DNA of 52,343 nucleotides, taken from positions 1 through 52,343 of the forward strand of contig SCQK01000002.1 of NCBI GenBank assembly GCA_004321885.1. Reading direction: 5' to 3'. The notes beneath the pieces were generated by a model, which ran no database searches, was not told where the DNA came from, and saw nothing but the letters and a program-made list of their open reading frames with translations. The first letter of the stretch is position 1, and each line of letters opens with the position of its first letter. Made by a program: the position numbers and the translations under genes. Positions 8,916 to 52,235 of the stretch are shown here, piece after piece. Origin of the DNA: Patescibacteria group bacterium. GTDB lineage: Bacteria; Patescibacteriota; Patescibacteriia; Magasanikbacterales; GWA2-37-8.

Positions 8916-8917
8916 AG

Positions 8918-9150: not shown

Positions 9151-9238
9151 TGGCGGAGGGTGCAGGACTCGAACCCGCAAGCCCCTTACGGGACCCCAGT
9201 TTTCAAGACTGGTGCCTTACCATTCGGCGCAACCCTCC
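9151..9238 (-). tRNA. tRNA-Ser (anticodon TGA), type II, CCA encoded
   Basis: Manual fold: acceptor GGAGGGT/ACCCTCC, D arm GCC-GAATGGTAA-GGC, anticodon stem CCAGT/ACTGG with loop CTTGAAA, a long variable arm, T arm GCGGG-TTCGAGT-CCTGC, and 3' GCCA. Confidence 0.8.
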
Positions 9239-26540: not shown

Positions 26541-27431
26541 TCATTTTTTTCTCCAGCCCATTTTTTTAAGAATCTTTTTTATCAATTCCTTGAAAGACAC
26601 CCAGCAGCCGCGAATTAAAAAGTAGGCATAAACTTTAGAGCGCGAAATCGGCAAGCCATATAAATTTGCTATCCAGAACACGGCTCGGGCCGTGCCCACG
26701 CTACGTTTATAATTATTCTCAAGCCCCTGGTACGAATCCCAGCGCAAATTATCATTGCGCGTTTTTATGAATGGCTCGGCCAACAAGGCAAACCGGCTGT
26801 TCTTAAAAGCCTGCAACAAGACAAAAAAATGGATGGTGCTGGTGCCGATATACTCATTTTTTGTTTCAAAATCCAGCCATGTTTTTCTAAGAAATAACTG
26901 CGTGGACATGCCGCCGAAAAAACCGACTAAATCAAGATAATTTTTAATTGACTTTACAAAATCGGCTAAGGTATCGTAAACCGCATCCTTTTCCAATTTT
27001 TGATTTGGCTGCGACAGGACCGGTTCTTTAAGCCAGTGGTCATAACCCCAGCAATTAAGCATAAAATAGGGGGCGCCGATGGTTTTAATTTTTTCAAGCA
27101 ATAACGCAAAACTGCCCGGGAAAAAACCATCATCATCGCCGATAGTCAAACAATACTGGCCCGAGCTTTGTTCAATGGCATTTAACAAATTCCGGTCAAA
27201 GCCCAGATTTTCTTGATTGCGCAAGTATCTGATATTGTCAAAATTTTCCTGGTAAGTTTTGACGACTGCCATGGTATTATCTGCACTGGCATTGTCGGAA
27301 ATAACAACTTCAACTTGCTCGCAAACTTCCTTATTATCAAATTGGCAAACAATACTGTTCAAAAGGTCTTTCAAACAGTCCGCTCTGTTGTATGTTGGAA
27401 CGCAAACGCTGATTATTTTATTGCCGGACAT
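26541..27431 (-). CDS. Glycosyltransferase family 2
   Basis: 296 aa with a GT-A N-terminus (ISVCVPTYNRADCL...VVISDNASADNT). Confidence 0.7.
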   Translation of the reverse strand: MSGNKIISVCVPTYNRADCLKDLLNSIVCQFDNKEVCEQVEVVISDNASADNTMAVVKTYQENFDNIRYLRNQENLGFDRNLLNAIEQSSGQYCLTIGDDDGFFPGSFALLLEKIKTIGAPYFMLNCWGYDHWLKEPVLSQPNQKLEKDAVYDTLADFVKSIKNYLDLVGFFGGMSTQLFLRKTWLDFETKNEYIGTSTIHFFVLLQAFKNSRFALLAEPFIKTRNDNLRWDSYQGLENNYKRSVGTARAVFWIANLYGLPISRSKVYAYFLIRGCWVSFKELIKKILKKMGWRKK

Positions 27432-30009: not shown

Positions 30010-30370
30010 AACGTTTGTTTAGATAAAAAGCTATGAAAGCCATGGGCAGAATCAGAATTGCTCCGGAAACATAATTGCTTACGCCTTTTAAGTTAAGAAA
30101 ACAAAGAAAAACAAGATTGATTAAATAGGTAAAAGCGTAAACACCAACAAACTTAAAAAGTAAATCGCGACGGTAAGAGGCGAAGACCAGCCGGCCGACG
30201 GTCTGAAAATTGAACAAAACCCCCAAAATAGTGGCCAGGAGCGCGGCCAAAGCATAATGCAGGCCGAAAAAAATCATAAGAGCAAAAACTCCATAGCCAA
30301 AAATTGTGTTTATTCCGCCGACCGCTAAAAAACGGATGAATTTATTCTCAAAAATTCGCCTCAAATTCAT
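29981..30370 (-). CDS. gtrA: GtrA-family small membrane protein (lipid-linked sugar flippase subunit)
   Basis: 129 aa with 4 TM helices and a GtrA signature (FIRFLAVGGINTIFGYGVFALM). Confidence 0.75.
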   Translation of the reverse strand: MNLRRIFENKFIRFLAVGGINTIFGYGVFALMIFFGLHYALAALLATILGVLFNFQTVGRLVFASYRRDLLFKFVGVYAFTYLINLVFLCFLNLKGVSNYVSGAILILPMAFIAFYLNKRFVYERRIEE

Positions 30371-31305
30371 ACATTAAAATTTATTCTTTCCTTTTCAATC
30401 ACCAGCGGCCGGTTTTTTACCTGGGTGTAAATGGCCGCGATATATTCCCCCAAAATGCCGACGAAAAAAAGCTGCATTGAGCCGAGAAAAAAGAACCCAA
30501 TGATAAGCGGCGCCAATCCCAACTGGAATCTCTGCCAATAAATTAACTTATAAATTAAATAGGCGAGGCCGAGCGCGAAACTTAGGGCCGATAGGACAAA
30601 GCCAATAAAGCTGGCCAACCGCAAAGGCAATTTAGAGTGATTGACAAAACCCAGCATGGCCACGCCGTACATGGTATACCAATTCCTGCCTTTTGATTTT
30701 CCTTTCTTTCTTTCATTCTGCGTGTATTTGAGCTCGGCATGCTGGAAGCCAACCTCGTTAATCATGCCGCGAAAATAAGGATCCGGATCGTCAAATTTTC
30801 TGATGGCTTCAATAAACTCCCGGTCATAAAGCCCGAAGCCGTGAAAATTTCTAATCTGTTCAATATCCGCGATTTTCTTGATTAAAAAATAATACAGCTT
30901 GCGGATATTAAACATTATGCCGCCCTCCTCGCTTTTATTTTTTATGCCGACAACGACCTTGTAGCCCTCTTCCCATTTTTTGATAAAATCCTTCATCAGG
31001 GCAGGCGGGTCCTGCAAATCGGAGACCAGCGATATAACCGCGTCACCCCTGGCCTGCAGCAAAGCGTGATGCAGGGAAGAGGCATGAAAATTGCGCGAGT
31101 TAACTATAATTTTTACATGCTTGTCTGCTTGCGCGATGCCTTTTAGTATGTTCACGGTCTCATCCGTGGAAGCGTTATCAATAAAAAGATGCTCGTAGTC
31201 GTACTGGGGCAGCTGGGCGAAAATTTCTCTAACTTGCAGATAGACATCCTTAATATTTTCTTCTTCGTTGTACGCGGGGGTGACCACGCTGATTAATTTT
31301 GCCAT
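30367..31305 (-). CDS. gtrB: GtrB/ArnC-type polyprenyl-phosphate glycosyltransferase (GT2 with C-terminal TM helices)
   Basis: 312 aa with a GT-A domain (ISVVTPAYNEEENI...DNASTDET) and two C-terminal TM helices. It lies upstream of gtrA. Confidence 0.8.
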   Translation of the reverse strand: MAKLISVVTPAYNEEENIKDVYLQVREIFAQLPQYDYEHLFIDNASTDETVNILKGIAQADKHVKIIVNSRNFHASSLHHALLQARGDAVISLVSDLQDPPALMKDFIKKWEEGYKVVVGIKNKSEEGGIMFNIRKLYYFLIKKIADIEQIRNFHGFGLYDREFIEAIRKFDDPDPYFRGMINEVGFQHAELKYTQNERKKGKSKGRNWYTMYGVAMLGFVNHSKLPLRLASFIGFVLSALSFALGLAYLIYKLIYWQRFQLGLAPLIIGFFFLGSMQLFFVGILGEYIAAIYTQVKNRPLVIEKERINFNV

Positions 31306-33524: not shown

Positions 33525-34544
33525 TTAAGATTGATAATGTTGTTTTAACCTTTCAGCAGCGCTGTTTAAGTTATCCTCCGGGAACAATCTGTATTTAACA
33601 ATATTGCAGTCCGCGCATGGCCCGCCCAAGATTTTGGCTCCTTCCAGCATTGTCCTTCTAAATTTTTGAAAGACAGGACCATTCCAGATTTCGGTTACTG
33701 ATTCTTTGTTGCAATCGCCCATAATGCCCGGATAATCCCAAGAATAGCAAGGAACAACCTTTCCGTCCGGATTGATTTGCATGTGAAAAAAAGGCTGGGG
33801 GCAAATTTTAACTTCCGAAACAGGCAGGCCAAACTGGGTTAGGTTCATTTCTTTGGCGCCGGGCATTTCTTCGTAATTCACACCGGCGTGGATGGGCACG
33901 GTATGCTCAACGGCTATAGAATCGCAAATGTCTCCAAAAATATCATAAAATTTTTCTTCGTCTTCTTTGTTGTCCAAAGCCGTGTCCACGATTTTGAAAT
34001 AGGCGTGCGCTTGGCCCTTGTGCTCGTAAAAATATCGTAAATTTCCCACGAATTTTTCAAAATCCAAATTAGCTTGGGAAATTTCTTGATATTTTTCCGC
34101 CGTAGTGCCCTGCAAAGAAACCACCAGCCGGTTCAACCCGGCAACGAGCAAGGCGTCGCTCATTTGCGGGGTAAGCAAAGAGGCGTTGGTTAAAATTTCA
34201 ATAACATTCGCTATCTTTTTTTCGGCCGTGTAGCGCACCATTTCCACAATGTCTTTATGCAAAAGCGGCTCGCCGATGCCGACAAAACGGATAACCTTGA
34301 TTTTGCCGGGGAATTTGGCCATGTCATCCACGCATTTTTTGTACAAACTTAAATCCATCATTATTTTATCGGAAATAAACCCGCGCTTGGAAGGCTCCAC
34401 TGAAAAAATACAATAACAACACTTAAAAACACAGGCGTAAATGGGGAAAATTTGTACAGCAAAAGGCGTGTCCAAAGGAAGCGCTTCCGAGAGTGGAGTT
34501 CTTTTGCCTCCCGGGGCTTGTCCACCTATATTTTTTGCTTTCAT
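33525..34544 (-). CDS. Radical SAM enzyme with C-terminal SPASM/twitch domain
   Basis: The CX3CX2C motif (CVFKCCYC) and a C-terminal Cys-rich auxiliary cluster region (PCYSW...GGPCADC) are present. The start is trimmed to MKAKNIGG (ATG at 34544), which overlaps the upstream gene stop as ATGA. Confidence 0.7.
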   Translation of the reverse strand: MKAKNIGGQAPGGKRTPLSEALPLDTPFAVQIFPIYACVFKCCYCIFSVEPSKRGFISDKIMMDLSLYKKCVDDMAKFPGKIKVIRFVGIGEPLLHKDIVEMVRYTAEKKIANVIEILTNASLLTPQMSDALLVAGLNRLVVSLQGTTAEKYQEISQANLDFEKFVGNLRYFYEHKGQAHAYFKIVDTALDNKEDEEKFYDIFGDICDSIAVEHTVPIHAGVNYEEMPGAKEMNLTQFGLPVSEVKICPQPFFHMQINPDGKVVPCYSWDYPGIMGDCNKESVTEIWNGPVFQKFRRTMLEGAKILGGPCADCNIVKYRLFPEDNLNSAAERLKQHYQS

Positions 34545-36211
34545 ACCAAGGGCGCTAACGCGAATTGCTCGGCGTATTTTTTCCAAAATGCCGATTGAGA
34601 AACTATGGCATTATATTTTGACCTGTATTCATCGTACTTATCCGCCTGGTTCATCATTTTATAACATTTGGCCGCGAAATAATAAGCAAAGGCATGGTCG
34701 TCTCTCGCTTGAATCGTGTTGGCAAAACCCTTCAGGGCCGTGGCATAATTGCCCAGCCGGAATTCCGTGTTGAGCGCGAAATTAAGTTCCAGATTCATGG
34801 TATAGGCTTTTTCCTGAATATATTCCGGGGTAAAATCATCGGTCCCGATAACCGCTCTCTTAAAATCACAGCTCATGTAATCCCCCTTGATAAAATTTTT
34901 CTGCAGGCACGTATCCAGCATTTCACTGCCCACCAGGGGCGTGGCCATGCTGATTCTAAACCAGGAGGCGTTAAGCGTTTTCAAAAAAGCCAGGGCATCT
35001 TCAATATCCTGTTTGGTTTCCCCGGGCAAACCGATGAGTATGGACACGTCCGAAGCAATGCCCAGCGCGCGACAATCGCGCAGAACCCGCGACACTATGG
35101 AGAGATTAAGCGGCTTGTGCATAATCTCGCGCAGGACCCGTTCACTGCCCGATTCCACTGACAGTATCAAATTATCCATGCCGGTGCTTTTTAGCGCTTC
35201 CAGCATTTTATAATCCAGCGCGTACAAGGCCAAAGAAGACGGGAAAAAAGACGTAAGCTTCAACTCGTTTAAGATATTCACGATTTCAAAAGCCCTGTGC
35301 CTGTTCACCAGCAAATGGTCGTCAAAAAACACCGCGGTCTGGGCGCCGTACTCGTCCCGCAGGCGCATCAAGTCCTCGCGCACTCTTTTCAAACTGTGAA
35401 AGCGCACGACCCGGCCGTGCACGGTGTGCGAAGCGCAAAAACAGCATTTATGCGGGCATCCCCGCGACGTCATTATGGGCATGCCTTTTTTTTGCCGTTC
35501 TTTTTCCAGGGGAAACAGGCCCAACAGCGAATGCTCGCGGTAATCATCCGCGTTGAGAATGCTGAAATCATAAAATGGAATTTCATCCAAATCTTCAATA
35601 AAATCAAACTGGAACATCTGGTTGTTTTCGGCTTTTTCCCTCGTAATCCAGCTAAGATGATTGCGCAGTAATGCTTTTTTATCCCCGGCTTTGACCAGCG
35701 CGAGCAGGGGTTTTTCCGCCTCGCCATAGCAAATCGCGTCAAAGCAGTCGCTGGCCTTAAACATTTCCCGGTACATATTGGTTGGCACCCCGCCGCCGGC
35801 CATGAGCATAGACGCGGGGAAAATTTTGCGCGCCGTTGCCGCCAAATCCAGCATATTGTAATAGGCCGGGGCAAACAGCGCGGATATGCCAACCATGGTG
35901 GGAGCGAAATCTTTCCACTCTGGCGCGGAAAGAGTTTCAAAAAATAATTCGGCAAAAGAATTATAATTAAAACTTTCTATTTTATTCAAAACCACGTTAA
36001 AATCCAGCAGCCTGACTTCCACCGGCGCGTTTTTTTTCAAATAAGCGCTCAGCGAAATAAGCCCGATAGGCATTTCGGTAAGCACGCTACCGTAGTTTCC
36101 CGTCCTTTTTTGCACGACGCGCTCATTAAAAGCGGGCCGAACAAAACTTTCAAACTTAATGTAAGGCGGGACGATAAATAAAATTCGTTCCATAGTAATA
36201 GACTTATTCAT
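34541..36211 (-). CDS. Cobalamin-binding (class B) radical SAM enzyme
   Basis: It has an N-terminal B12-binding Rossmann-like domain and a radical SAM core (SRGCPHKCCFCAS). The start could be MNKS (36211), MERIL (36193), or the annotated 36262. Length is about 555-573 aa. Confidence 0.7.
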   Translation of the reverse strand: MNKSITMERILFIVPPYIKFESFVRPAFNERVVQKRTGNYGSVLTEMPIGLISLSAYLKKNAPVEVRLLDFNVVLNKIESFNYNSFAELFFETLSAPEWKDFAPTMVGISALFAPAYYNMLDLAATARKIFPASMLMAGGGVPTNMYREMFKASDCFDAICYGEAEKPLLALVKAGDKKALLRNHLSWITREKAENNQMFQFDFIEDLDEIPFYDFSILNADDYREHSLLGLFPLEKERQKKGMPIMTSRGCPHKCCFCASHTVHGRVVRFHSLKRVREDLMRLRDEYGAQTAVFFDDHLLVNRHRAFEIVNILNELKLTSFFPSSLALYALDYKMLEALKSTGMDNLILSVESGSERVLREIMHKPLNLSIVSRVLRDCRALGIASDVSILIGLPGETKQDIEDALAFLKTLNASWFRISMATPLVGSEMLDTCLQKNFIKGDYMSCDFKRAVIGTDDFTPEYIQEKAYTMNLELNFALNTEFRLGNYATALKGFANTIQARDDHAFAYYFAAKCYKMMNQADKYDEYRSKYNAIVSQSAFWKKYAEQFALAPLV

Positions 36212-37304
36212 TCTCAAACAATCGCGGGTCTTCGTGAAACGGCTTCCGTGTTTTGTCTTCATCCGTAAAAACCTCGGCGCACGGCACCGGCAATGGCTTG
36301 CCGTAAACGCGCGGCTCCAGATATTTTTTCATGAATGCGCGGTCTTCGGCAATGGTGCAGGTGTCCACGTACTCGCCGAAATACTTGATGTCAAACCCGC
36401 GCTTAATAATGTCTTTCAGCGGCTCTTGCAAAACATTGCCGATGGACACGTGAATGTAGGGGCAGGGCAAAACATCGCCGTATTGGGTGACGGAAAACAT
36501 GCCTTTCAAAGCAATACAGCCCATATTCAAGCCATAGGCCGGGGTCAAATGCGTGAAGACCTTGTATTTTTTTTCCAGCTCGCGCATATAGGCCATGTCT
36601 TTTTTATCCACCAGGCCGTCATATTTTCTTTCCCAGTTGCCCACGGGCTTGGCATAGCTGACAAATACGCCAATGCCCTTATCAGTAAAGTATTCCAAAA
36701 ATTTTATGAACTCATCGGAATACAAACGGTCTTTCCAAACAACGGTCTGCATAAAAACATCCAGCCCGGCGGTCTTGGCATTATCCACCGCTTTCAGCAC
36801 GCGCTCGTATGCGCCGGGCGCGTGCCGAAACTCATCATGGCTTTTGGCGTCAAAGCTGTCCAGGCTGATTTGCATGCGGTCCACGCCAATGCTTTTGAGA
36901 TGCTTGGCGCGCTCTGCGGTCAGCAGAAAGCCGTTGCTGTCGCAGTTGATGTAAAATTTTTGCGGGTCAATGGCCGCCACCAGGGCGTCAAAATCCTTGA
37001 AAACGAGCGGCTCGCCGCCAGTGATGGTTACCCGCGCCAAACCCAGCTCGTCGGCCTGCCGAAAGAGCTCGCGCACGTCCGCGATGGTCATCTCGCGGGC
37101 GCCGTCGCTGCGGCTCTGAAATCTTTTGATGGAGCAATGCTCGCACTTGAAATTGCAGGTGTAATTGTATTGAAATTGAATAATGGCAATGCTTTCGCCG
37201 CGCCTAATTTTTTCGTCAAATTTCAAAATTTTTTCGTAGACGAGCGGCTTATTTTCTTTCAGATAATTGCGCTTGCCCTGTTCACGCTGGGAAAGTTGCT
37301 CCAT
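36204..37304 (-). CDS. Radical SAM enzyme with SPASM domain
   Basis: 366 aa with CX3CX2C (CNFKCEHC) and C-terminal auxiliary-cluster cysteines (CPYIH...C...C). Confidence 0.7.
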   Translation of the reverse strand: MEQLSQREQGKRNYLKENKPLVYEKILKFDEKIRRGESIAIIQFQYNYTCNFKCEHCSIKRFQSRSDGAREMTIADVRELFRQADELGLARVTITGGEPLVFKDFDALVAAIDPQKFYINCDSNGFLLTAERAKHLKSIGVDRMQISLDSFDAKSHDEFRHAPGAYERVLKAVDNAKTAGLDVFMQTVVWKDRLYSDEFIKFLEYFTDKGIGVFVSYAKPVGNWERKYDGLVDKKDMAYMRELEKKYKVFTHLTPAYGLNMGCIALKGMFSVTQYGDVLPCPYIHVSIGNVLQEPLKDIIKRGFDIKYFGEYVDTCTIAEDRAFMKKYLEPRVYGKPLPVPCAEVFTDEDKTRKPFHEDPRLFENE

Positions 37305-42498: not shown

Positions 42499-42508
42499 AC
42501 CGATTGTC

Positions 42509-42528
42509 ATTCCTGCGCAAGCAGGAAT
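42509..42528. promoter_or_regulatory. Perfect 8-bp inverted repeat ATTCCTGC-GCAA-GCAGGAAT 11-30 nt upstream of the HTH gene start (candidate operator or leader hairpin)
   Basis: Seen directly in the sequence. Confidence 0.4.
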
Positions 42529-42656
42529 CCAGTTAAAAATATTTCTCCAGCCATAGTATACCATCAGGTGTCTTTGGGTGTCAAACGATGCCAGTAGGAC
42601 TTATCCACAAGCAGGAGAAACTTGACCAAAATCGTAATATTTGAGAACATACTGTC

Positions 42657-43448
42657 ATGAAACTCACCATTTTAGGGTCTGGAACAGACGCGTCGCATCT
42701 GGCCGGGATTGCCAACCGCTTCCCGCCGGGTTTTTTGGTTGAGTGGAATGAACACAAACTGCTGATTGAATGCAGTGAAGGCATTCGCTTTCGCCTGGAA
42801 AAAATCGGGGTGGACTACGCCGACATCAGGCATCTGGCCATTAGCCACGCGCACCCCGACCACTACGCCCTGCCGCAATTTCTGCAATCGGTCTGGAATA
42901 AAATCATGTGGAGCGGAAAAAATTACGACCATGAACTGGAAATTTTTTGCACCAAAGATATAGCGGACAATTATAATAAACTGTGGAATTTGTATCGGCC
43001 CGGAGAAGATTACCTGCCCAAGCCAAAGTTGATTTTTAAGCCGATGTCTAATGGCGAACAATATGAATTAGGCGGGGCAAAATTGTCGGCCGCCAATGTT
43101 TCGCACAGCAAGATGGACGCGCTGGCCTTTCGTCTGGAATTAAACAACCGCGCGCTGGTTTATTCGGGCGATACCGATGATTGCCTGGGCATAAGAAAAA
43201 TCGCGAAAGACGCTGATATTTTTATTTGCGAATGTTCAGCGCTGATTGGCGCTGAAAAAACATCGCTGACCACGCATTTAAATCCGTTTCAAATTGGCGC
43301 GATTGCGCGCGACTCGGCTGTAAAAAAATTAATATTAACGCATTATTCCGGTTTAAATAGCGACGAGGAAATGACCAATGAATGCCGGCGGGCCGGGTTC
43401 AAAGGCGAGATAACCATAGGAAAAGATTTTCAGACCTTTGAAATATAA
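42657..43448 (+). CDS. MBL-fold metallo-hydrolase (RNase Z/beta-lactamase-like)
   Basis: 263 aa with the motif HAHPDH. Confidence 0.7.
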   Translation: MKLTILGSGTDASHLAGIANRFPPGFLVEWNEHKLLIECSEGIRFRLEKIGVDYADIRHLAISHAHPDHYALPQFLQSVWNKIMWSGKNYDHELEIFCTKDIADNYNKLWNLYRPGEDYLPKPKLIFKPMSNGEQYELGGAKLSAANVSHSKMDALAFRLELNNRALVYSGDTDDCLGIRKIAKDADIFICECSALIGAEKTSLTTHLNPFQIGAIARDSAVKKLILTHYSGLNSDEEMTNECRRAGFKGEITIGKDFQTFEI

Positions 43449-43455
43449 TCTTTAT

Positions 43456-43490
43456 AAAAAAACTTCCACTGATTAAGGTGGAAGTTTTTT
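43456..43490. terminator. Bidirectional rho-independent terminator (A-run, stem AACTTCCAC/GTGGAAGTT, loop TGATTAAG, T-run)
   Basis: A perfect 9-bp stem flanked by A7 and T6. It separates the MBL gene from the GC-rich cassette. Confidence 0.75.
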
Positions 43491-43496
43491 AAATAC

Positions 43497-43565
43497 TTTC
43501 ATCAGACCACTCGCCAACCGTGCACCCTTGTGGTGTATGGCTAACGAGTAGGTGGCCTGATGAAG
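43497..43565. repeat. About 70-nt structured element with terminal inverted repeats TTCATCAGACCAC...GTGGCCTGATGAA
   Basis: Seen directly in the sequence, at the boundary of the GC-rich cassette just downstream of the SDR stop. Confidence 0.35.
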
Positions 43566-43597
43566 AAAGAACAACGCGCCGCCCACTCGCGGGGATT

Positions 43598-44320
43598 CTA
43601 CCGGACCAACGAATTCTGAGCAACGAGACCTCCGTCCACCACGATCTCTTGGCCGACGATATAGGAGGCCGCGGGTGATGCCATGAAAGTGACCACCGTG
43701 GCGACCTCTTTCGGATTCGCGAACCGGCCGATCGGAATCTTCTTCCCCCAATCGGAAAGTTCGGTCTCGCTCATGCGCATCGTGCCACCGGTGTCGCGAG
43801 TAGCGCCGGGGGCGACTGCGTTCACACGGATTCCGAAGGGCGCCAGCTCCACGGCGCGGCATCGCATATACCCGACGAGACCGCACTTGGACACGTCATA
43901 CGCGCAATCGCCGGCAAAGGCGACCCGCGAATGCACCGAAGTGATGAAGATGATTACGCCAGCACGGCGCTTCTTCATTCCCGGAATCACCGCTTCGGTG
44001 ACGTTACGCGTGCCGTTCAGGTTGGTAGCAATGACATTTTCCCAGTCATCGCCGCTGGTGATGGCGGCGTTGTTGACCAGGATGTCAAGGTGTCTCGTCT
44101 CCAGGCCGGAAACCTGGGTCTTGTCGCGAATGTTCACGCGCTCGTATGTCGCGCGCATACTTGCGTATGCTTCCTGCGTGACTTCATCCGCGGGCGGAGC
44201 AAGAATGTCAAAGTTTAACACTCTTGCCCCCAGGGACAAGAACTCATTTACGACGGCGGCGCCGATTCCCCGCGAACCACCGGTGACCAAAACCGTCTGT
44301 CCGCTGAACTGCTTCGTCAT
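43598..44320 (-). CDS. Short-chain dehydrogenase/reductase (classical SDR, FabG-like)
   Basis: 240 aa with TGGSRGIGAAV and YxxxK (YDVSK) motifs. Its GC content and codon usage (AAG/GAG/TTC/AAC) are distinct from neighbouring genes. Confidence 0.8.
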   Translation of the reverse strand: MTKQFSGQTVLVTGGSRGIGAAVVNEFLSLGARVLNFDILAPPADEVTQEAYASMRATYERVNIRDKTQVSGLETRHLDILVNNAAITSGDDWENVIATNLNGTRNVTEAVIPGMKKRRAGVIIFITSVHSRVAFAGDCAYDVSKCGLVGYMRCRAVELAPFGIRVNAVAPGATRDTGGTMRMSETELSDWGKKIPIGRFANPKEVATVVTFMASPAASYIVGQEIVVDGGLVAQNSLVR

Positions 44321-44344
44321 TTCTTCTCTCCGTGATAGAGTAGG

Positions 44345-44995
44345 TCAGAGCTTGACCCCATTTTCCAGGTACACCAGCTCGATGGACTGGCTGTCCGATG
44401 TTTGACAGGCTCGTAAGGCCAAGGGAGCGTAATAAAGACGGTGGTTTTCCTGCATATTGGCAGGCAAGCGATTGGCTGAGAACCATCGTCTGGTTTCGTC
44501 TTCCTTCGGCTCCTCATCGAACCATACCAGGTTGATCCACGAGATGCTCGGGATTCCGTATCCGTGATTGCCCCGGGCTATATCCCAGACCTCGGCGATG
44601 CGGACGAAATGAATGCCTTTCGTGCCGTTGAACTCGAGTCGATCAGCCGTTTCCTGTTCCGTCTCCCACGGACGCAAGTACGAACCGATGAAGTGCCACT
44701 CGTTTTGGAAGCATTCTTTTGCCGAGCGGAGACGCATGAAGAACTCAAACTCGCCCGATCGATTGCGCCGCATCGGAATCGCTTCGAACGCGATATTATT
44801 CGATTTCCGGGCGATGGAGAGCCAGAACTCGTGCCCAAACGCCCCCTTGGTTGGCACGATATCAATCAGTTGGGCCACCGTTTGTTTGAACAGCTGGGGG
44901 TCAGCTTGCCACACCTCCTCGAGCAAGCGCTTGGCGACCAGCGCCTTCAATTTCAGAGCATCACTCTGAACCACTACAATCTCTTTTCCGCTCAT
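44345..44995 (-). CDS. Divergent Gmm-like Nudix-fold protein with N-terminal extension
   Basis: 216 aa. The segment EWHFIGSYLRPWETEQETADRLEFNGTKGI aligns with the modified Nudix boxes of the two Gmm-like proteins in this window (GWHFPGGLLRFRESFDERIQAVAWKELGI). It is GC-rich like the adjacent SDR. Confidence 0.4.
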   Translation of the reverse strand: MSGKEIVVVQSDALKLKALVAKRLLEEVWQADPQLFKQTVAQLIDIVPTKGAFGHEFWLSIARKSNNIAFEAIPMRRNRSGEFEFFMRLRSAKECFQNEWHFIGSYLRPWETEQETADRLEFNGTKGIHFVRIAEVWDIARGNHGYGIPSISWINLVWFDEEPKEDETRRWFSANRLPANMQENHRLYYAPLALRACQTSDSQSIELVYLENGVKL

Positions 44996-45137
44996 CGTTT
45001 CACCCCGATGTTCGTTGTGTTGTAAATGATTTTGGTCAAAGCCAAAATCATCTCACCCTAACATACACCGATAAAAAAATCAAGGCCTTGAGCCCTGATT
45101 TTGCGATTTTGACTGAATTCTGTTTTACCCCCTCCCT

Positions 45138-45168
45138 GTCACCACACCAAAATTTTTGGTGTGGTGAC
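45138..45168. repeat. Perfect 31-nt palindrome GTCACCACACCAAAA-T-TTTTGGTGTGGTGAC
   Basis: Seen directly in the sequence, in the intergenic region between the two Nudix genes. Confidence 0.6.
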
Positions 45169-45171
45169 AAG

Positions 45172-45194
45172 CCTCCCCCTTGTCAAGGGGGAGG
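45172..45194. repeat. Intergenic copy of the CTCCCCCTT-GTCA-AGGGGGAG palindromic element
   Basis: cctcccccttgtcaagggggagg. It is related to the in-frame elements at 7237 and 8212. Confidence 0.6.
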
Positions 45195-45197
45195 AAT

Positions 45198-45653
45198 TCA
45201 TCCCATCACCCTCTGCCAAAATCCCCTGTGCCCGTCAATAATATTCTTGGGCATGGTTTTGAAAAATCTGCCTTTTTTCGGCTTCATAATAGTCCGGCAC
45301 TCAAACACCAGCGACACTGTGTGCCCGCGCGAACCCTGGCTGCAATCATTGGCAAACAAAAATTTGGAATCGCTGACATTAATCCCCAGCTCTTTCCAGG
45401 CCACGGCCTGGATGCGTTCGTCAAAGCTCTCGCGAAAGCGCAGAAGACCGCCCGGGAAATGCCAGCCGCGCCACCACTGGTCGTCGCGCCAGGTGAGCAA
45501 CACGCCCCGCGGACTCTTTATCACCAGCTCTACGGCCGCAAAAGTTACTACGCCGAGCAGAGCTTCAAAAACCGGCTGTGGCAGGCCCTCGTGAGGGTTG
45601 TCTATTTTTTTCAGCAGGACGCAAAGCTGTTTTAATTCTTTCGCGTTTAACAT
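45198..45653 (-). CDS. Nudix hydrolase, GDP-mannose mannosyl hydrolase (Gmm)-like, second copy
   Basis: 151 aa with motifs VLLTWRD and GWHFPGGLLRFRESFDERIQAVAWKELG, paralogous to 14423..14875. Confidence 0.6.
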   Translation of the reverse strand: MLNAKELKQLCVLLKKIDNPHEGLPQPVFEALLGVVTFAAVELVIKSPRGVLLTWRDDQWWRGWHFPGGLLRFRESFDERIQAVAWKELGINVSDSKFLFANDCSQGSRGHTVSLVFECRTIMKPKKGRFFKTMPKNIIDGHRGFWQRVMG

Positions 45654-45690
45654 ACGATACCAGTATACATTTTTTTATTTAAAAAAACAA

Positions 45691-46734
45691 TCAACGCGCG
45701 CGAACCATAATAACAATGGCAAAAAAAAGAAAAATTACGGCGGCAATCATCCGCGCGCGGGGCTTGCCGCCAATGCCTTTCCATTCTCCGGAAATAAAGC
45801 CGGCGCCCTGGCCGCCCAAGATCTGCATGGCCTGGGCAATACCCACTCCCACCGAAGCCCCGACCGCTCCCAAAGCCACCATGCCCAGACCCTGCAAAGC
45901 AAAAGCGACAATCAGTTGCGAACCTATCAGAAGAGCCAGCGCGGCCTCGGATTTTTTTTGAAAAAAAACCGACCAAGACCTTTTTCTTATGATCAGCCAA
46001 ACCGGATAGGCCAAATTTATCACGGCGCCGCCGACAAATCCGCCGGCCCAGACGCCAAAATTGGCGGATATAACTCCGGCGCCCTGGGCTTTCATGGCCG
46101 CGATAATCGGCCCCTGGCTGTAGACAAAAGCCAGCGACGGACCCACTGAAAGCGCTCCGGCGATGATGGCCATTACCAGTCCGCCGCGAAAACTACCCGC
46201 TGGCGCGCAGACAACCGTTGGATATTTTTCAGACCGCTGATTTGCGATTTTTTCCCGGCCAAAGCCGGCCAACGCCGCCAAAAACACGCCGCCCAGCATT
46301 ATCGCCACGCCCGAAAGCACGGTTAGCCCGGCCAGAGAAAAAATATCCGGGGAATTTTCAAATAATCCGGTGCCTTTGAAAATCATGGGCAATATCACGG
46401 CCAGAGAAGCGCCCACGCCCGTCAGTATGGCGCCGGTCAAAGACAAACCAATGCGCTCGGCACAGCGGCCGGCCAGTACATTGGCCACTCCCCAGCCCAC
46501 CGCGAAAAGATTGGAAATAATTAGAGGCTTCCAGCCGACCGCGGCATAAGCGGCCCACGGATTGCCCACCCCGGCCAGCACCACTACCCATGGGATAATA
46601 AAAAGCGGCAACATACCGATAAACCAGTAGTGCTCAAACTTGTACTGGCGCATTTTTTTCATCGGCCACAAGGCGCTGCCGGTGCCCAGGCCGGCGATGG
46701 CGGAAAGCGCGACTCCTGAAAATATGGAAGACAT
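45691..46734 (-). CDS. DMT-superfamily sugar:proton symporter (RhaT-like)
   Basis: 347 aa with 10 TM helices and an RhaT-like repeat organisation. Confidence 0.5.
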   Translation of the reverse strand: MSSIFSGVALSAIAGLGTGSALWPMKKMRQYKFEHYWFIGMLPLFIIPWVVVLAGVGNPWAAYAAVGWKPLIISNLFAVGWGVANVLAGRCAERIGLSLTGAILTGVGASLAVILPMIFKGTGLFENSPDIFSLAGLTVLSGVAIMLGGVFLAALAGFGREKIANQRSEKYPTVVCAPAGSFRGGLVMAIIAGALSVGPSLAFVYSQGPIIAAMKAQGAGVISANFGVWAGGFVGGAVINLAYPVWLIIRKRSWSVFFQKKSEAALALLIGSQLIVAFALQGLGMVALGAVGASVGVGIAQAMQILGGQGAGFISGEWKGIGGKPRARMIAAVIFLFFAIVIMVRAR

Positions 46735-46817
46735 AAGTGTATTAAAGAATATCGTAAAACGGCCATTACCGGCTGATTGGCGGAATAATAATGACGATAG
46801 GGGCGGCCCTCATCGTG

Positions 46818-48542
46818 CTAAGCAGAAGATGAATTTACATATGGTATTTCCGCGTACAGGCCGGCGGACCATTTCTCGGGCATTTTTTGATCGGGATCAA
46901 TCATCAGCTCGCAGACAATCGGCCCGTCAAAATCCATAACTTTTTTTACCTTGTCCAACTCGCTGTCATTGTTAATCCGCTCAAAGGCAATGCCCCAGGC
47001 CGGAATTAGTTTGCTGAAATCCGGAATGCTCACTCCTGTCTCTGGGTCTGAAGCAAAAATCTTTTTAAAGAAATGCGTGTGCGTGGCCCGGATGGAATAA
47101 TAGCCATTGTTGTTGACAATAAAAATTTTAAGCGGCAGTTTGTGATGAACCACGGTTTGCAATTCCTGTAAATTCATCATTATGGAACCGTCGCCTTCAC
47201 TGCAGATGACGGCCTGGCGGCCACGCGCGATGCTGGCGCCAATGGCCATGGGCAGGCCCGAACCCATATGACCCAAACCGGCGTTGGTGAGAAACCGCTG
47301 GCCGCGGGAAACTTTAAGCGCCTGGTGAGGGGTAAGCGAAGCCATGCCATTGGCCGTGGTGATATCCAAACCTGGATTCCGGCTCCCGGGCCGGAATGAC
47401 ATGTTGCATGCGCCTATCTCGCGCCAAAATTTGTAGACATTCAAATATTTCGGGTCGCAGGCCAAATCAGCGGGATTGAGCGGCTCCACTTTCACGTCCC
47501 AGCGATTGAGGGTGATGTCTTGTTTGTATAATTCATCTAAAAATACTTTGGCATCGCAATGCACAGCCAAATCCACGGATAATTGTTTACGTTTCATTTC
47601 ATTGTCATCAATATCAACCATTATTTTTTTTGCGTTCGGCGCGAATTTATTGTAGTCCCATGAAACTTGCGTGAGTTGCATACGCTCGCCCACGATAAGC
47701 AGAAGGTCGCAGTTGTCTGCCGCGTAATTGGCGGCTTTGTTACCCGGCATTCCCTGCCTGCCCAAATAATAGGGATAGTCGTAAGTGACTAAATCATCAG
47801 CCGTAAAAATTGGCGTAACCGCGTTGATTTTAAATTTATCCAAAGACTTCCACAAAATTTCTTCGCCCCCGGCCAGACGTATGCCATTGCCGGCGATGAG
47901 CAGGGGGCGTTTGGCTTCGCGTAAAAGTGTGACGATTTTTTCCATTGTCGCGCGCTCCAGCGAACCTGGATTCCAGCTCTCGGGCTGGAATGATAAAAGT
48001 GTGTCCGGGTCAATTTCCGCGGCCTGCACGTCCAAAGGAATTTCCACAAACACCGGGCCGGGCCGGCCGTGGGTAGCTAAATACAGGGCTTTTTCCAGAT
48101 GATAGCGAATTTCATTTTCATTTTCCACGGTTACGGCGTACTTGCAAACCGGCTTGGCAATATCAATGACGTTTAATTCCTGAAAGCCGATGGCGCGCAC
48201 TACTGGTTGTCCGTTGGCATCGCGAGGCGTGATGTCCGCTCGCTTCACTTGTCCGGCAACAACAAACATCGGGATACTGTCCAGCCAGGCCCCGGCCATG
48301 CCGGTTACCGCGTTGGTGCCGCCCGGGCCCGTGGTTACCAGAGCGACCCCCGGAGAATTTTTTATCCTGCCATAGCCCTCGGCCGCGATGGCCACTGCCT
48401 GCTCGTGATGACAACAGTAAGATTTGAGGTTTGACCGGCCCAGTGAATCCACCAGGTGCATAATGCCGCCGCCCGAAACCAAAAAGACCGAGTCAGCCAC
48501 TTTTTGTTCAATAAATTGCCAGACGTAGTCGGATAGTTTCAT
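46818..48542 (-). CDS. Thiamine-diphosphate-dependent enzyme of the acetolactate-synthase/YerE family
   Basis: 574 aa with three ThDP-enzyme domains: an N-terminal Pyr domain (VFLVSGGGIMHL...GPGGTNAVTGMAGAW), a central domain, and a C-terminal PP domain with GDGS...NN ThDP-binding motif (GDGSIMMNLQEL...NNNGY). Confidence 0.75.
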   Translation of the reverse strand: MKLSDYVWQFIEQKVADSVFLVSGGGIMHLVDSLGRSNLKSYCCHHEQAVAIAAEGYGRIKNSPGVALVTTGPGGTNAVTGMAGAWLDSIPMFVVAGQVKRADITPRDANGQPVVRAIGFQELNVIDIAKPVCKYAVTVENENEIRYHLEKALYLATHGRPGPVFVEIPLDVQAAEIDPDTLLSFQPESWNPGSLERATMEKIVTLLREAKRPLLIAGNGIRLAGGEEILWKSLDKFKINAVTPIFTADDLVTYDYPYYLGRQGMPGNKAANYAADNCDLLLIVGERMQLTQVSWDYNKFAPNAKKIMVDIDDNEMKRKQLSVDLAVHCDAKVFLDELYKQDITLNRWDVKVEPLNPADLACDPKYLNVYKFWREIGACNMSFRPGSRNPGLDITTANGMASLTPHQALKVSRGQRFLTNAGLGHMGSGLPMAIGASIARGRQAVICSEGDGSIMMNLQELQTVVHHKLPLKIFIVNNNGYYSIRATHTHFFKKIFASDPETGVSIPDFSKLIPAWGIAFERINNDSELDKVKKVMDFDGPIVCELMIDPDQKMPEKWSAGLYAEIPYVNSSSA

Positions 48543-49585: not shown

Positions 49586-51144
49586 TAAAGTACCCAATAA
49601 GTTAAAATTGTTTTACGATTTTTGTTTTGCGCGATGCTTTCGTCGGCGTAGTAAGAATCATCCTTATAGTGAGTGGTGGAAATTTCTTCAAACACGCAGC
49701 CGTTTTTGGTGGAAAACCCGTGCGCTAAATCGCGCTCTATCGTCACAATATCGCCGGGCCCGCTTTCTTTGATGACGCCGTTTAGGTCAAAAATCGCGTC
49801 GCCCCACAAGATATGAAAGGTCTCTTCTTTTAATTTATGCGAGTGCACCGGGTGTTTTTGGCCGGGCAGAAGTACAATCAATTTTTTGCAATATTCGCGG
49901 TTGAAACAATTTATCAGGCTGGCGCCGTATTCGTAGAATTTTTCTATGCCATAATGATGCGACAGCTCAAATTCCCACTTGTTTGATACCGGGATATTGG
50001 CGTTTTTGAGCAGCTGGTTGATTTGGGAAATGGCGGTATAAACCTGCTCGCGCAATTCCAGACAATTTACGTCCGCGGCCATGATGGGCTCGTTTTTCTT
50101 GAAGTCGCGGCTGGCCGTAAACACCGTGTATTTGGACAGGTCGTTGGCCAAAACCTGCCCGGCCATGTTGGGAAACGCGAAAAAAGAATTTTTGATGTCC
50201 ACGCGCTCGCCCGGCCTGATATCGCCGGCCGCGAACACTCCGCGCTGAAACTGGCGGATGTCGGCCAGCTCCTGGGGCGCGAAATCATGGCGCCTCCCGG
50301 AAACGCCGCAAGCGCGAAACGCCTCGGCCGCGGCTTCCAGCCATTTTTGTACCTGGTCTGGCGTGGCTGAATAGCCGTTTACGGAATACTTTTCGCTTTT
50401 AGCCGAGACATGCTTTTCAAAAGTGCCGGCGCCTTTGGCCACGGCCAGCTTTACCGCGTCAAAATTGTCGGCGTGTTCGTGGGTGGAAAAACCAATGGTT
50501 ATTTCCGGGTACCGCTCGCGCAACAAAGTAATCTGATTGAATTGCAGCTGCTCGTGGGGGGTGGGATACTGCCCGATGCAGTGCTCCAGCGCGAATTTTT
50601 TATTGCGGTTGATGAAAAAACTCACCACGCGGTCAATTTTTTCCAAAGCCGCGCCGCCGGTGGAGGCGATAATCGGCTTATCGGTTTTGGCAATGGCCTC
50701 CAAAAGCGTCCAGTCGGTAAAAGAACAGCTGGCGACTTTAATAATATCATAGCCGTGGCGCGCCACATTTTCCACGGACTTTTCGTCAAAAGGCGTGCAC
50801 ATGGAAATGAAGCCCAGCTTGTCGGCCTCGCTCTTTAATATCAAAAATTCCTCGCCCGTCAACCGCGCCTCGGAAAATCTTTTGATATATTTCAAATCCA
50901 TCCGCTCTTTATAATCCGGATGGATAAAAGTGTCCAGGTCGCGATACTGGAACTTGAACGCGAACCGGAAACCCAAATCCGGAGCAATAAAATTTTTACA
51001 GACCTCGCCAATCTCCCTGATTATTTTCAAGCCAAACTCCACATCGCCCATGTGGTTGTTGGCCAGCTCAAAAATAAAAAGAGGCGCCGCCGTTCCTCCT
51101 CTTTGCGCGAAAATCGCGTCAATTTTTTCCGCCATAATATACAT
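49585..51144 (-). CDS. NeuB-family nonulosonate (sialic-acid-like) synthase fused to a C-terminal cupin domain
   Basis: 519 aa. Residues 1-350 carry a NeuB/SpsE PEP-condensing TIM barrel plus SAF domain. Residues 400-519 form a cupin fold (HSHKLKEETFHILWGDAIFDLNG...). The start overlaps the fcl stop as TAATG. Confidence 0.65.
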   Translation of the reverse strand: MYIMAEKIDAIFAQRGGTAAPLFIFELANNHMGDVEFGLKIIREIGEVCKNFIAPDLGFRFAFKFQYRDLDTFIHPDYKERMDLKYIKRFSEARLTGEEFLILKSEADKLGFISMCTPFDEKSVENVARHGYDIIKVASCSFTDWTLLEAIAKTDKPIIASTGGAALEKIDRVVSFFINRNKKFALEHCIGQYPTPHEQLQFNQITLLRERYPEITIGFSTHEHADNFDAVKLAVAKGAGTFEKHVSAKSEKYSVNGYSATPDQVQKWLEAAAEAFRACGVSGRRHDFAPQELADIRQFQRGVFAAGDIRPGERVDIKNSFFAFPNMAGQVLANDLSKYTVFTASRDFKKNEPIMAADVNCLELREQVYTAISQINQLLKNANIPVSNKWEFELSHHYGIEKFYEYGASLINCFNREYCKKLIVLLPGQKHPVHSHKLKEETFHILWGDAIFDLNGVIKESGPGDIVTIERDLAHGFSTKNGCVFEEISTTHYKDDSYYADESIAQNKNRKTILTYWVL

Positions 51145-52103
51145 TATTTTAAGTTACAATTTGATTGATACCAATCATAGGTCGTTTTGAGTCCTTGGTC
51201 AAGCTCTATTTTGTGCCGCCAGCCCAGGGCCCGGATGCGGGAAATATCCAGTGTCCTCCGGAAAACGCCGTCCGGCTTGGCCGGGTCCCATTCAATTTTT
51301 CCCTCATAGCCCGTAATTTTTTGAATCAGCTCGGCCAAATCCTTTATCGTGATATCCTGGCCCATGCCCAGATTCGCGAAAATTTCTCCCCGCTCGTTCT
51401 GTTCTTTGGTCGGATTAAAATGCTCCATTAAAAATATACAGCCGTCGGCCATATCGTCCGCGTGCAAAAATTCCCGCCAGGGCGCGCCCGTGCCCCAGAG
51501 CGTCACTTTTTTTTCTCCACTTGTTTTGGCCTCGTGAAATTTGCGCAGCAGGGCCGGAATCACGTGCGAATTTTGCAAATCAAAATTATCGCCGGGCCCG
51601 TACAAGTTGGCCGGCATCACCGCGATAAAATTAGCGCCGTATTGGCGGTTATAACTCTGGCACATTTTCAGCCCGGCAATTTTGGCGACAGCGTAAGGTT
51701 CGTTGGTCGGCTCCAGCGGCCCGGACAGCAGATATTCCTCTTTTATCGGCAACTGGCAAACCTTTGGGTAGATGCAGGCCGAACCCAAAAACAAAAGCTT
51801 CCTTACATTATATATATAGGAAGCGTGAATGACGTTGTTTTGTATGGCCAGATTATTATAAATAAAATCAGCCGGATAGGTGTTGTTGGCGCCGATGCCG
51901 CCCACCTTGGCCGCGGCCAAAAAAACGTATTCCGGTTTTTCAGCCGCAAAAAAATCATTGACCGCTTTTTGCTCGCGCAAATCCAATTCTTGATGGGTTT
52001 TTAACAAAAAATTGCCAAAGCCCTCGGCCCGCAAACGGCTAACCAAAGCCGAACCCACCAATCCGCGGTGTCCGGCAACATAAACTTTGGCATTTTTTTC
52101 CAT
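51144..52103 (-). CDS. fcl: GDP-L-fucose synthase (GDP-4-keto-6-deoxy-D-mannose 3,5-epimerase/4-reductase)
   Basis: Start trimmed to MEKNAKVYVAGHRGLVGSALVSRL (ATG at 52103), because the longer ORF runs through tRNA-Ala. Fcl-specific motifs include FLGSACIYPK. Confidence 0.85.
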   Translation of the reverse strand: MEKNAKVYVAGHRGLVGSALVSRLRAEGFGNFLLKTHQELDLREQKAVNDFFAAEKPEYVFLAAAKVGGIGANNTYPADFIYNNLAIQNNVIHASYIYNVRKLLFLGSACIYPKVCQLPIKEEYLLSGPLEPTNEPYAVAKIAGLKMCQSYNRQYGANFIAVMPANLYGPGDNFDLQNSHVIPALLRKFHEAKTSGEKKVTLWGTGAPWREFLHADDMADGCIFLMEHFNPTKEQNERGEIFANLGMGQDITIKDLAELIQKITGYEGKIEWDPAKPDGVFRRTLDISRIRALGWRHKIELDQGLKTTYDWYQSNCNLK

Positions 52104-52104
52104 G

Positions 52105-52177
52105 TGGACCTCAGGGGGATCGAACCCCTTACCTCTTCCGTGCCACGGAAGCGCTCTACCAAATGAGCTAGAGGCCC
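52105..52177 (-). tRNA. tRNA-Ala (anticodon GGC)
   Basis: Manual fold: acceptor GGGCCTC/GAGGTCC with a G3:U70 pair, D arm GCTC-ATTTGGTA-GAGC, anticodon stem CTTCC/GGAAG with loop GTGGCAC, T arm AGGGG-TTCGATC-CCCCT, and discriminator A. The G3:U70 pair is the alanine identity element. Confidence 0.8.
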
Positions 52178-52235
52178 TCATTTCTCCTAAATACTATTAG
52201 AAAATGTTTGCTTTGTCAAACAGATGTACAGTTAA

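Follow-up and report, generated by a model that had tools for sequence, protein, structure and literature searches.

A foreign-looking two-gene cassette in a Patescibacteria glycan cluster and the structured 3' element that it shares with other GC-rich genes

Introduction

Three described systems offer close parallels to the locus that we report here, a two-gene unit at ~43,496 to ~45,070 on the minus strand of contig SCQK01000002.1 (GenBank assembly GCA_004321885.1). This contig of 52,343 nucleotides (nt) belongs to a Patescibacteria metagenome-assembled genome (MAG); we analyzed it over its whole length and refer to it as the window. In integron cassettes, one or more foreign open reading frames (ORFs) are followed by attC, an imperfect palindrome with conserved arms, a variable center and extrahelical bases that folds on one strand. 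REP and REPIN sequences, which are mobilized by RAYT, are extragenic imperfect palindromes at the 3' ends of genes, with GTAG in their arms. In mosaic O-antigen and capsule clusters, in situ xenologous displacement leaves an atypical gene in the place of its functional equivalent at a conserved position of a glycan operon.

The Patescibacteria unit shares features with each of these systems and departs from each. It has the layout of an integron cassette; however, it lacks the AAC/GTT core, the integrase and the array, and it adds terminators, an extra P1 helix and, in three of the cassettes compared with it, a promoter of their own. Its 3' palindrome resembles REP sequences in position and in its bulge, a 4-nt TAGG/GTAG duplication in one arm. 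Unlike them, it occurs once in 52 kb here and once in a 14-kb contig elsewhere, is tied to GC-rich genes and not scattered, and has no visible RAYT gene. As in mosaic clusters, an atypical gene occupies a conserved glycan-operon position, but here every genome examined has a GC-rich gene in the slot, and some members of the set have a noncoding 3' module in common.

Patescibacteria, which have tiny genomes and grow on the surface of host cells, are believed to rely on gene exchange. Horizontal gene transfer between them has been reported to be frequent (PMC12455944), in a study that makes no mention of hairpins, cassettes or Nudix genes. We consider it probable that the unit described here is at once a foreign cassette, a member of a hairpin-marked family and the occupant of a recurrent slot.

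Results and Discussion

A compositionally atypical unit

From ~43,496 to ~45,070, the minus strand carries a self-contained two-gene unit. It comprises a leader (44,996 to 45,072) that is AT-richer than the ORFs, the gene for a 216–amino acid (aa) long Nudix protein that we call p216 (44,345 to 44,995), a gene for a 240-aa short-chain dehydrogenase/reductase (SDR; 43,598 to 44,320), a structured 3' element and an intrinsic terminator. The unit lies directly downstream of the terminator of a conserved sugar operon (NeuB-cupin, HAD, thiamine pyrophosphate (TPP) enzyme, RhaT-like transporter and short Nudix).

The regime under which the coding DNA of this cassette evolved was richer in GC than that of the host genome. 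GC content across 43,497 to 44,995 is 0.566, compared with 0.474 for the whole window, and is the highest among all 1.5-kb windows; the SDR gene reaches 0.592, with a third-position GC content (GC3) of 0.72. The margin is small, as the runner-up non-overlapping 1.5-kb windows stand at 0.546 and 0.543, and isolated 500-nt windows elsewhere in the contig reach 0.586 to 0.594. Because other windows come so close, the amplitude of GC alone is neither unique nor convincing. The codon signature, by contrast, is confined to the cassette. With a model of usage in the other 47 genes, the synonymous-codon log-likelihood per codon is 0.008 for the SDR and −0.035 for p216, whereas the other genes average 0.127 (sd 0.037, minimum 0.055). 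The corresponding z values of −3.2 and −4.4 are the lowest of the 49 genes. The shift is strongest for phenylalanine, where TTC takes 17/21 codons (81%) in the cassette versus 201/966 (21%) (Fisher test, p = 1e-8), and extends to AAG (63% versus 27%, p = 0.001), ATC (68% versus 38%, p = 0.003) and GAG (61% versus 36%, p = 0.006). For AAC, the difference (52% versus 37%) was not significant in the same test.

The signal is also present in short nucleotide words and in amino acids. When a Markov model of 4-mers is trained on the remainder of the window, z falls below −2 in most 300-nt windows starting between 43,401 and 44,951 (minimum −4.4), with a few cassette windows at only −1.6 to −1.95. 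The excursion at ~43,400 to 45,250 is the longest and deepest in the window. The others coincide with tRNA genes: two tRNA-Ser genes (8,917 to 9,238) and a tRNA-Ala gene (52,104 to 52,177) explain the remaining atypical stretches. R/(R + K) is 0.59 to 0.68 in the cassette and 0.15 to 0.48 in neighboring host genes, and the GARP share is raised. In this and the other cassettes compared, the rise in GC is limited to the ORF plus or minus ~50 to 100 nt, with very AT-rich promoter regions upstream. The cassette thus shows the atypical nucleotide, codon and amino acid composition with sharp boundaries by which islets are recognized. Moreover, its relative synonymous codon usage correlates better with that of cassettes from other genomes (r = 0.72 to 0.78) than with that of its own genome (r = 0.59 to 0.68).

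A first-pass annotation of this DNA had proposed a foreign composition with codon choice switched toward AAG, GAG, TTC and AAC. The proposal stands at the codon, 4-mer and amino acid levels, with AAC removed from the list. As to GC heterogeneity, a check set beforehand, GC peaks of similar height occur elsewhere in the window; the codon and 4-mer signature is unique to the cassette. Two other sources of the bias were discarded. Ribosomal protein S6 and SSB show host-typical codon usage; high expression is therefore not the cause of the cassette signal. Mutagenesis of the diversity-generating retroelement type was set aside too, as third-position base counts show simple GC enrichment without an adenine-specific signature.

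A structured 3' element shared with unrelated GC-rich genes

The cassette ends in a conserved structured element (43,496 to 43,600, minus strand) made of a short P1 helix and a long hairpin (43,498 to 43,564; folding z = −6.7), which carries a 4-nt CCUA bulge and has a distal stem that varies. The 70-nt inverted repeat that the first-pass annotation took for a delimiter is real, but it is more than that, being part of an element common to other GC-rich cassettes. We found the ~100-nt element with its terminator at five other Patescibacteria loci (L016, L018, L020, L021/L023 and L022). A two-arm scan of the Joint Genome Institute (JGI) metagenome collection returned seven contigs, five of them distinct; three loci are represented by duplicate assemblies (L016 = L019, L018 = L024 and L021 = L023). 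A covariance model of the element (R1) scores the window copy at 71 bits (E = 2e-15) and finds one copy in the 52-kb window, one per other locus and no further copy in the 189 kb of loci.

In each of the five contigs, no more than ~40 nt separate the start of the element from the stop codon of the gene in front, which exceeds its contig in GC, and a terminator follows. The genes in front encode an MBL (metallo-β-lactamase) hydrolase (GC3 0.79), a 2-oxoglutarate (2OG)–Fe(II) oxygenase (GC3 0.72), the long Nudix of L016, and proteins of 115 and 170 aa of unknown function, the last with only a mild GC contrast. Five of the six genes that precede the element are strong GC outliers. In L016, a groundwater Patescibacterium from Hainich, the long Nudix gene is followed by CATCAGGCTACCTACTCGTTAG...AACGAGTGGCCTGATGAAA and then by the terminator; both arms are almost identical to those of the window repeat, whereas the genes in front differ. 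The MBL protein encoded in L018 (7,114 to 8,166) is Apyc1-like and only remotely related to the MBL gene of the window.

The consensus consists of the P1 helix (CCCC...GCAAGGGG), the long hairpin and an A-rich linker. Within the hairpin, the proximal arms and the 4-nt bulge are invariant, and the distal stem is variable yet paired; the invariant outer arms read AUCAGGCYA and URGYCUGAU. Pairing extends to 92% of the cells of the alignment, and compensatory changes occur in nine pairs. None of 500 shuffles reached the observed covariation, and slid alignments used as controls were only 33 to 46% paired. Conserved G·U pairs show that it is the sense strand that folds, either as RNA or as that strand of DNA. 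As the element always stands before a terminator, it would therefore be transcribed as a 3' untranslated region (UTR).

The element has no counterpart in Rfam or in the phage and plasmid collections searched. Rfam 15 gave nothing at the gathering score; its sole match was Thr_leader, at 27.9 bits against a threshold of 55 for the window copy, and there was none for the five other loci. We rejected Thr_leader as an identity, as the match is under threshold and reflects the generic shape of a hairpin followed by a terminator. Nor was there any match in IMG/VR (searched with two patterns), among INPHARED phages or among PLSDB plasmids.

An integron-type cassette with the hairpin as its attC site would account for several of these features: an imperfect palindrome of 55 to 60 nt directly 3' of the ORF, conserved outer arms, a self-complementary variable center, an asymmetric bulge, and cargo that is diverse and of foreign composition. 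However, the attC core sites (R'' RYYYAAC and R' GTTRRRY) are missing from the outer arms of the element. The window and the examined loci contain neither an integron integrase gene (intI) nor a cassette array, the window has no tyrosine recombinase, and the cassettes of L014, L018 and L020 carry their own promoters. An integron-type cassette is thus extremely improbable here.

The element also recurs with different cargo in different places. The 163-nt 3' modules (element plus terminator) of L018 (8,180 to 8,341) and L020 (5,853 to 6,015), from the same metagenome, are 92% identical and stand behind unrelated GC-rich genes. Copies lie at unrelated loci of different genomes, for example beside tRNA-Asp, tRNA-Val and PPDK; the cassettes of L018, L020 and L022 adjoin convergent tRNA-Asp, tRNA-Val and tRNA-Asp genes, respectively. 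Two further observations concern these neighborhoods. In L018, another GC-rich stretch (8,441 to 8,851) lies between the 3' module and the tRNA gene. In L022, a fragment of a PurH (AICARFT/IMPCHase) gene with a GC3 of 0.90 (92 to 553) lies beside the hairpin-marked 115-aa cassette and the tRNA-Asp gene; purine synthesis genes are unusual in Patescibacteria.

These copies bear on a more conservative explanation, in which the genes arrived from another Patescibacterium by homologous recombination or in situ displacement within a mosaic glycan cluster, and the hairpin is a lineage-typical 3' UTR that stabilizes mRNA or directs RNase processing, with no role in mobility. The cassette does lie in a ~43-kb glycan island whose genes range in GC from 0.40 to 0.60. 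The hairpin is always followed by a terminator, hence transcribed, and its sense-strand G·U pairs are conserved; the GC of its variable parts follows that of the host and not that of the ORF. Gene transfer among Patescibacteria is reported to be frequent (PMC12455944), and no recombinase is present in the window. Mosaicism nonetheless leaves unexplained why one module should stand behind unrelated GC-rich genes, at loci that are themselves unrelated and in different genomes, and why five of the six preceding genes are such strong GC outliers. The invariance of the proximal arms and bulge also exceeds what a stabilizing hairpin needs. We regard this explanation as possible but doubtful, and favor a foreign cassette from a hairpin-marked family.

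A probable recurrent slot behind the short Nudix gene

The gene upstream of the cassette encodes a resident short Nudix protein of 151 aa (Nudix151; 45,198 to 45,653, minus strand; PF00293, E = 1e-4) with host-like codon usage. Its orthologs are 61 to 75% identical in four species-representative genomes, two of Magasanikbacteria (L014 and L015), the Hainich groundwater Patescibacterium (L016) and a Falkowbacterium (L017), and in three of the four the gene directly follows that for the TPP enzyme. The order NeuB-HAD-TPP-Nudix151 is kept in L014 and L015, and TPP-Nudix151 in L016. A long Nudix gene stands directly after the Nudix151 ortholog in L016 and after a Nudix151-like gene in L028; none was found at this position in L014, L015 or L017. 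In L014, the long Nudix gene is elsewhere in the cluster, between GtrA and DegT genes. In L026, a 779-kb Patescibacteria contig, it precedes DegT, and L027 carries a short-type family member. The L028 gene (5,001 to 6,230), between the Nudix151-like gene and DegT, encodes a 409-aa fusion of two tandem long-Nudix units and is GC-richer than its neighbors. All of the long Nudix genes sit in TPP/DegT/GT2 glycan clusters.

Because long Nudix genes follow the short one in other genomes, the slot would be old, and the cassette would not be a one-off recent insertion. Its occupants diverge far more than their surroundings: long Nudix proteins are 26 to 35% identical to one another, compared with 61 to 75% for the short Nudix. 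The homologous long Nudix in this slot is only 28% identical to p216 and not a clear ortholog, whereas the flanking gene is 68% identical. The SDR gene is absent from all four sister loci (L014 to L017), none of them from a close relative (above 90% identity). We therefore read the position behind the short Nudix gene as an apparently old, recurrent accessory slot whose occupants look exchanged and not inherited. The first-pass annotation had suggested a recent insertion, to be doubted if an orthologous cassette were found at the same site in distant relatives. The foreign composition stands, but homologous GC-rich long Nudix genes occupy the same slot in L016 and L028, and the L016 gene is followed by the same 3' hairpin; neither is a clear orthologous cassette, given the 28% identity and the missing SDR, so that the suggestion is contradicted in part.

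The long Nudix gene is a GC outlier in five of five genomes, namely the window, L014 (0.63 versus 0.41, GC3 0.75), L016 (0.63 versus 0.40), L026 (0.60 versus 0.38, GC3 0.79) and L028 (0.51 versus 0.34). Occupants may turn over rapidly, drawn from a GC-rich pool of wide diversity, or a constraint particular to this gene may act. If the latter, the genes would be native, with GC-rich codons maintained by selection, for instance for rare codons that keep hydrolase levels low or for mRNA structure, and no transfer would be involved. The consistency of GC-richness within one functional neighborhood, and the short-plus-long Nudix adjacency kept in the window, L016 and L028, are what such a constraint would give. 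Synonymous selection would not, however, produce the bias in amino acids (Arg over Lys, GARP raised), and unrelated enzymes (SDR, MBL hydrolase and 2OG oxygenase) carry the same signature. The long Nudix is also far more diverged than its neighbors, and the SDR is not found at the sister loci. Native constraint is thus an unlikely account of the cassette, and acquisition from elsewhere is favored.

Boundaries of the cassette and integrity of the assembly

At its 3' end, the cassette shares a bidirectional intrinsic terminator (43,457 to 43,490) with a convergent plus-strand MBL-fold gene. The 13-nt arms are 100% complementary around an 8-nt loop, with a run of A before and a run of T after, and either strand folds into a stem of 13 to 14 base pairs. 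At the 5' end, the terminator of the NeuB-HAD-TPP-RhaT-Nudix151 operon is a hairpin (AUCAGGGC..GCCUUGAU) followed by U7 at 45,073 to 45,100 on the minus strand; it was read from the sequence and is absent from the output of a simple scan. Beyond it, a compound palindromic structure (45,114 to 45,200, minus strand; folding z = −7.0) has an outer stem, TGAATTC/GAATTCA, that overlaps the stop codon of Nudix151. Inside this stem lie two perfect palindromes (45,137 to 45,169, 33 nt, and 45,172 to 45,194), two of only four such in 52 kb. The GGGAGGGGG run after the second hairpin of this structure could alternatively pair with CCUCCCCC of the first.

The earlier view of a unit delimited by terminators and hairpins agrees with these structures. 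Its twin palindromes are real, although they begin at 45,137, ~10 nt later than first placed (45,127 to 45,194), and the actual terminator of the upstream operon is the hairpin at 45,073 to 45,100. Separately, the word ATCAGG(G)C, which opens the conserved hairpin, recurs in the stem of this terminator (45,092 to 45,099), in the 5' leader of the L020 cassette (~4,866 to 4,873) and at the base of the 3' hairpin of L014 (~10,444 to 10,450); this may be chance. We discarded CAAGGGG/CCCCTTG and ATCAGG(G)C, seen near some 5' ends, as a boundary motif: they are not shared by all cassettes and were chosen post hoc.

An independent Logan contig (L001) matches 42,503 to 45,165 of the window exactly and ties the cassette to MBL and HTH genes of host composition on its left. 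A second (L029) corresponds to 45,154 to 47,400. Both end within the 33-nt perfect palindrome, with an overlap of 12 nt; thus, the right junction rests on the original assembler and on the same gene order in L016 and L028. Such a coincidence of contig ends is what would be seen if a GC-rich segment of another organism had been joined at the palindrome by misassembly. However, L001 already joins the cassette to genes of host composition, and the two contig ends bear complementary halves of one palindrome. The succession of short Nudix and GC-rich long Nudix recurs in L016 and L028, which derive from different samples and different assemblers, and the loci L016, L018 and L021 were each assembled twice (as L019, L024 and L023). 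A chimera is very unlikely on these grounds, and we treat the cassette as part of the Patescibacteria genome.

Origin and possible role of the 3' element

A codon style and a 3' module held in common with other foreign-looking genes support a horizontal origin of the cassette. We propose that its source is a gene pool that is foreign or evolves separately and that it is one of a family of GC-rich one- or two-gene Patescibacteria cassettes that end in the same ~100-nt hairpin module. The occupant of the slot would have been replaced or exchanged, as opposed to inserted at random for the first time. The 3' element itself could serve in the processing or stability of RNA, or it could be a site of single-strand recombination carried along with the cassettes.

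A number of observations weigh against this proposal. Only six distinct copies of the element are known, and the window copy is divergent in P1, with GAGUGGGCGG in place of GCAAGGGG. The element is not found behind the closest SDR homologs (L007 to L011), which have plain terminators, or behind the long Nudix genes of L014, L026 and L028. We found no conserved 5' boundary element or motif common to the cassettes, and a promoter scan of the minus strand at 44,996 to 45,072 gave no sigma-70 promoter for the cassette. Mobility genes are also missing: there is no integrase or transposase among the ~48 Pfam-scanned genes of the window, and no tyrosine recombinase in the window. No tRNA gene in the window adjoins the cassette, the tRNA-Ser genes being 34 kb distant. 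The right junction crosses the perfect palindrome where both independent contigs break, and the GC-richness of the long Nudix in every genome seen could reflect gene-specific constraint. Finally, no donor came to light: the best relatives are about 35% (p216) and 62% (SDR) identical and lie on contigs of 37 to 45% GC that resemble the candidate phyla radiation (CPR). Relatives so distant do not establish a recent transfer.

More tentatively, the data hint at a previously undescribed class of small cassettes in Patescibacteria for which the 3' element serves as a handle, either as an attC-like single-strand recombination site used by a recombinase or as a new structured RNA (a ribozyme or a signal for processing) on which the expression of foreign genes depends, with the long-Nudix slot as a preferred target. 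In either role, the element is a testable candidate recombination site or RNA signal. A conserved element that closes foreign genes in several lineages would also provide a searchable marker for the acquisition of single genes in Patescibacteria.

Proteins encoded by the cassette

On its own, p216 has no match in Pfam (PF00293) or NCBIfam. A word-indexed protein search recovered only p216 itself, and the profile version only three proteins. When 1.84 billion cluster representatives were scanned exhaustively with HMMER, the search recovered 97 distant homologs (22 to 38% identity), and 44 of the 60 best of these match PF00293. The AF2 model (pLDDT 87.7) has three N-terminal helices followed by a Nudix fold. 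Foldseek pairs this model, at probability 1.00, with AraR, NUDT18, MTH1 and the GDP-mannose mannosyl hydrolase (GDPMH), and also matched CDP-Chase; the family profile matches Nudix chains in the Protein Data Bank (PDB; best E = 1.6e-9). Models and profiles together thus show the Nudix alpha/beta/alpha fold in p216 and place the protein in a rare "long Nudix" family, in line with the initial description of a divergent Nudix protein. Nudix151, which has no NCBIfam match, is a distant paralog of p216, because all of its length aligns with the p216-family profile (hhalign probability 98%, E = 1e-13). A resident paralog beside the cassette, also part of that description, is thereby borne out.

The canonical Nudix box, GX5EX7REUXEEXGU, is not preserved. 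In p216 the sequence reads G104-S-YLRPW-E111-TEQETAD-R119-L-E121-F-N-G, with Ser at the first Gly position, a single glutamate left in REUXEE, a short helix (113 to 119) and, in front of the box, the three-helix extension. We aligned it with Escherichia coli Gmm (NudD/WcaH, b2051; PDB 1RYA), taken from the annotated MG1655 record. The long-Nudix family consensus R-L-x-x-x-E-[FL]-G matches R-L-T-M-A-E-L-G of Gmm, but the box of p216 itself (R119-L-E121-F-N-G) is two to three residues shorter between R-L and E-F. The position of Gmm His124 (Q-H before a conserved Trp), the catalytic base in the published GDPMH mechanism, is Arg in p216 (D-E-T-R-R-W) and in the L016 protein, and His in P0122, P0123 and P0129. 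With its shortened box and with Arg at the position of the catalytic His, p216 may have a weakened activity. The Gmm-like box noted at first thus fits the family better than it fits p216.

Gmm is a close described parallel. Both proteins have the Nudix fold, the long-Nudix consensus box and that of Gmm lack the second and fifth glutamates, both proteins are encoded in polysaccharide clusters beside SDR-type sugar enzymes, and some long-Nudix members keep the His124 equivalent. In contrast to Gmm, p216 has the N-terminal extension, is only ~16 to 17% identical and has no match to NCBIfam PRK15434; its partner is a classical FabG-like SDR and not of the extended Gmd/Fcl type. By analogy, the long Nudix may bind or cleave a nucleotide-sugar intermediate of the NeuB/TPP-enzyme pathway in the manner of GDPMH. 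This would define a rare GDPMH-like family as a regular, fast-turning-over part of a conserved NeuB/TPP-enzyme glycan pathway, and its turnover points to diversification of surface sugars in these host-attached organisms.

The SDR (Pfam adh_short_C2, E = 1e-44; adh_short, E = 1e-40) contains the motifs TGGSRGIG, LVNNAAI, ITSVHS and YDVSK in its translation and is an intact enzyme by the criteria for classical SDRs. It falls below every curated FabG cutoff (its best score is 178.9 bits against an equivalog cutoff of 222, followed by 172 against 332), and its context is sugar genes and not fatty-acid genes. Its nearest relatives are 59 to 62% identical, within a small clade (50 to 62%) on short, low-GC, CPR-like contigs; those with visible context adjoin genes for DegT, epimerase/dehydratase, NTP-transferase and TPP enzymes. 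The neighbors of these homologs (231 to 235 aa and 160 to 168 aa, without Pfam matches) are unrelated to p216 by BLASTP and by a family-alignment hidden Markov model (HMM). From its family and context, the SDR might reduce a keto group on the same sugar or on its TPP-enzyme-derived side chain. YerE/YerF, which presumably provides the parallel for a TPP enzyme with a reductase, tailors branched sugars; a three-domain TPP enzyme and a small reductase likewise accompany NDP-sugar genes here and in L002, but the present operon adds NeuB and HAD, which are typical of nonulosonic-acid routes. In L002, an SDR homolog with 53% identity (2,839 to 3,669) and a protein of 276 aa that matches nothing in Pfam (5,012 to 5,722) both have a GC content of 0.52 in a cluster of 0.36 to 0.41, and the pair adjoins DegT, epimerase, NTP-transferase and TPP-enzyme genes.

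Genomic context

The first 9 kb of the window hold SSB, ribosomal protein S6, type IV pilus genes, YchF and the two tRNA-Ser genes. From ~9.3 to 52 kb follows a single glycan-biosynthesis island, where numerous glycosyltransferases and epimerases/dehydratases are joined by three radical-SAM enzymes, one flippase and one DegT aminotransferase. An epimerase gene opens the minus-strand operon; NeuB-cupin, the HAD phosphatase, the three-domain TPP enzyme, the RhaT-like transporter and Nudix151 follow in this order. The genes for p216 and the SDR come next, so that the cassette lies at the 3' end of the operon. The MBL-fold gene that converges on it from the opposite side (42,657 to 43,448, plus strand) has weak RNase Z, cyclic-nucleotide phosphodiesterase and Apyc1-like matches.

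A third Nudix gene (14,423 to 14,875) encodes a 150-aa protein that is 39% identical to Nudix151 and has a canonical-like box, RIAREETGL. Its best NCBIfam match is GDPMH (PRK15434), under the cutoff, and it adjoins a GT11 fucosyltransferase-like gene and an acyltransferase-epimerase fusion. The GT2-GtrA-DegT-GT87 block (27,413 to 31,305), which comes after the Nudix genes in L016 and L014, is 14 kb away from them in the window; the cluster has therefore been rearranged. At the contig's end, the ORF called at 51,144 to 52,181 overlaps the tRNA-Ala gene, and its true start is probably further downstream. The three radical-SAM enzymes (33,525 to 37,304), two of them SPASM and one B12-binding, have counterparts in the Magasanikbacteria loci L014 and L015.

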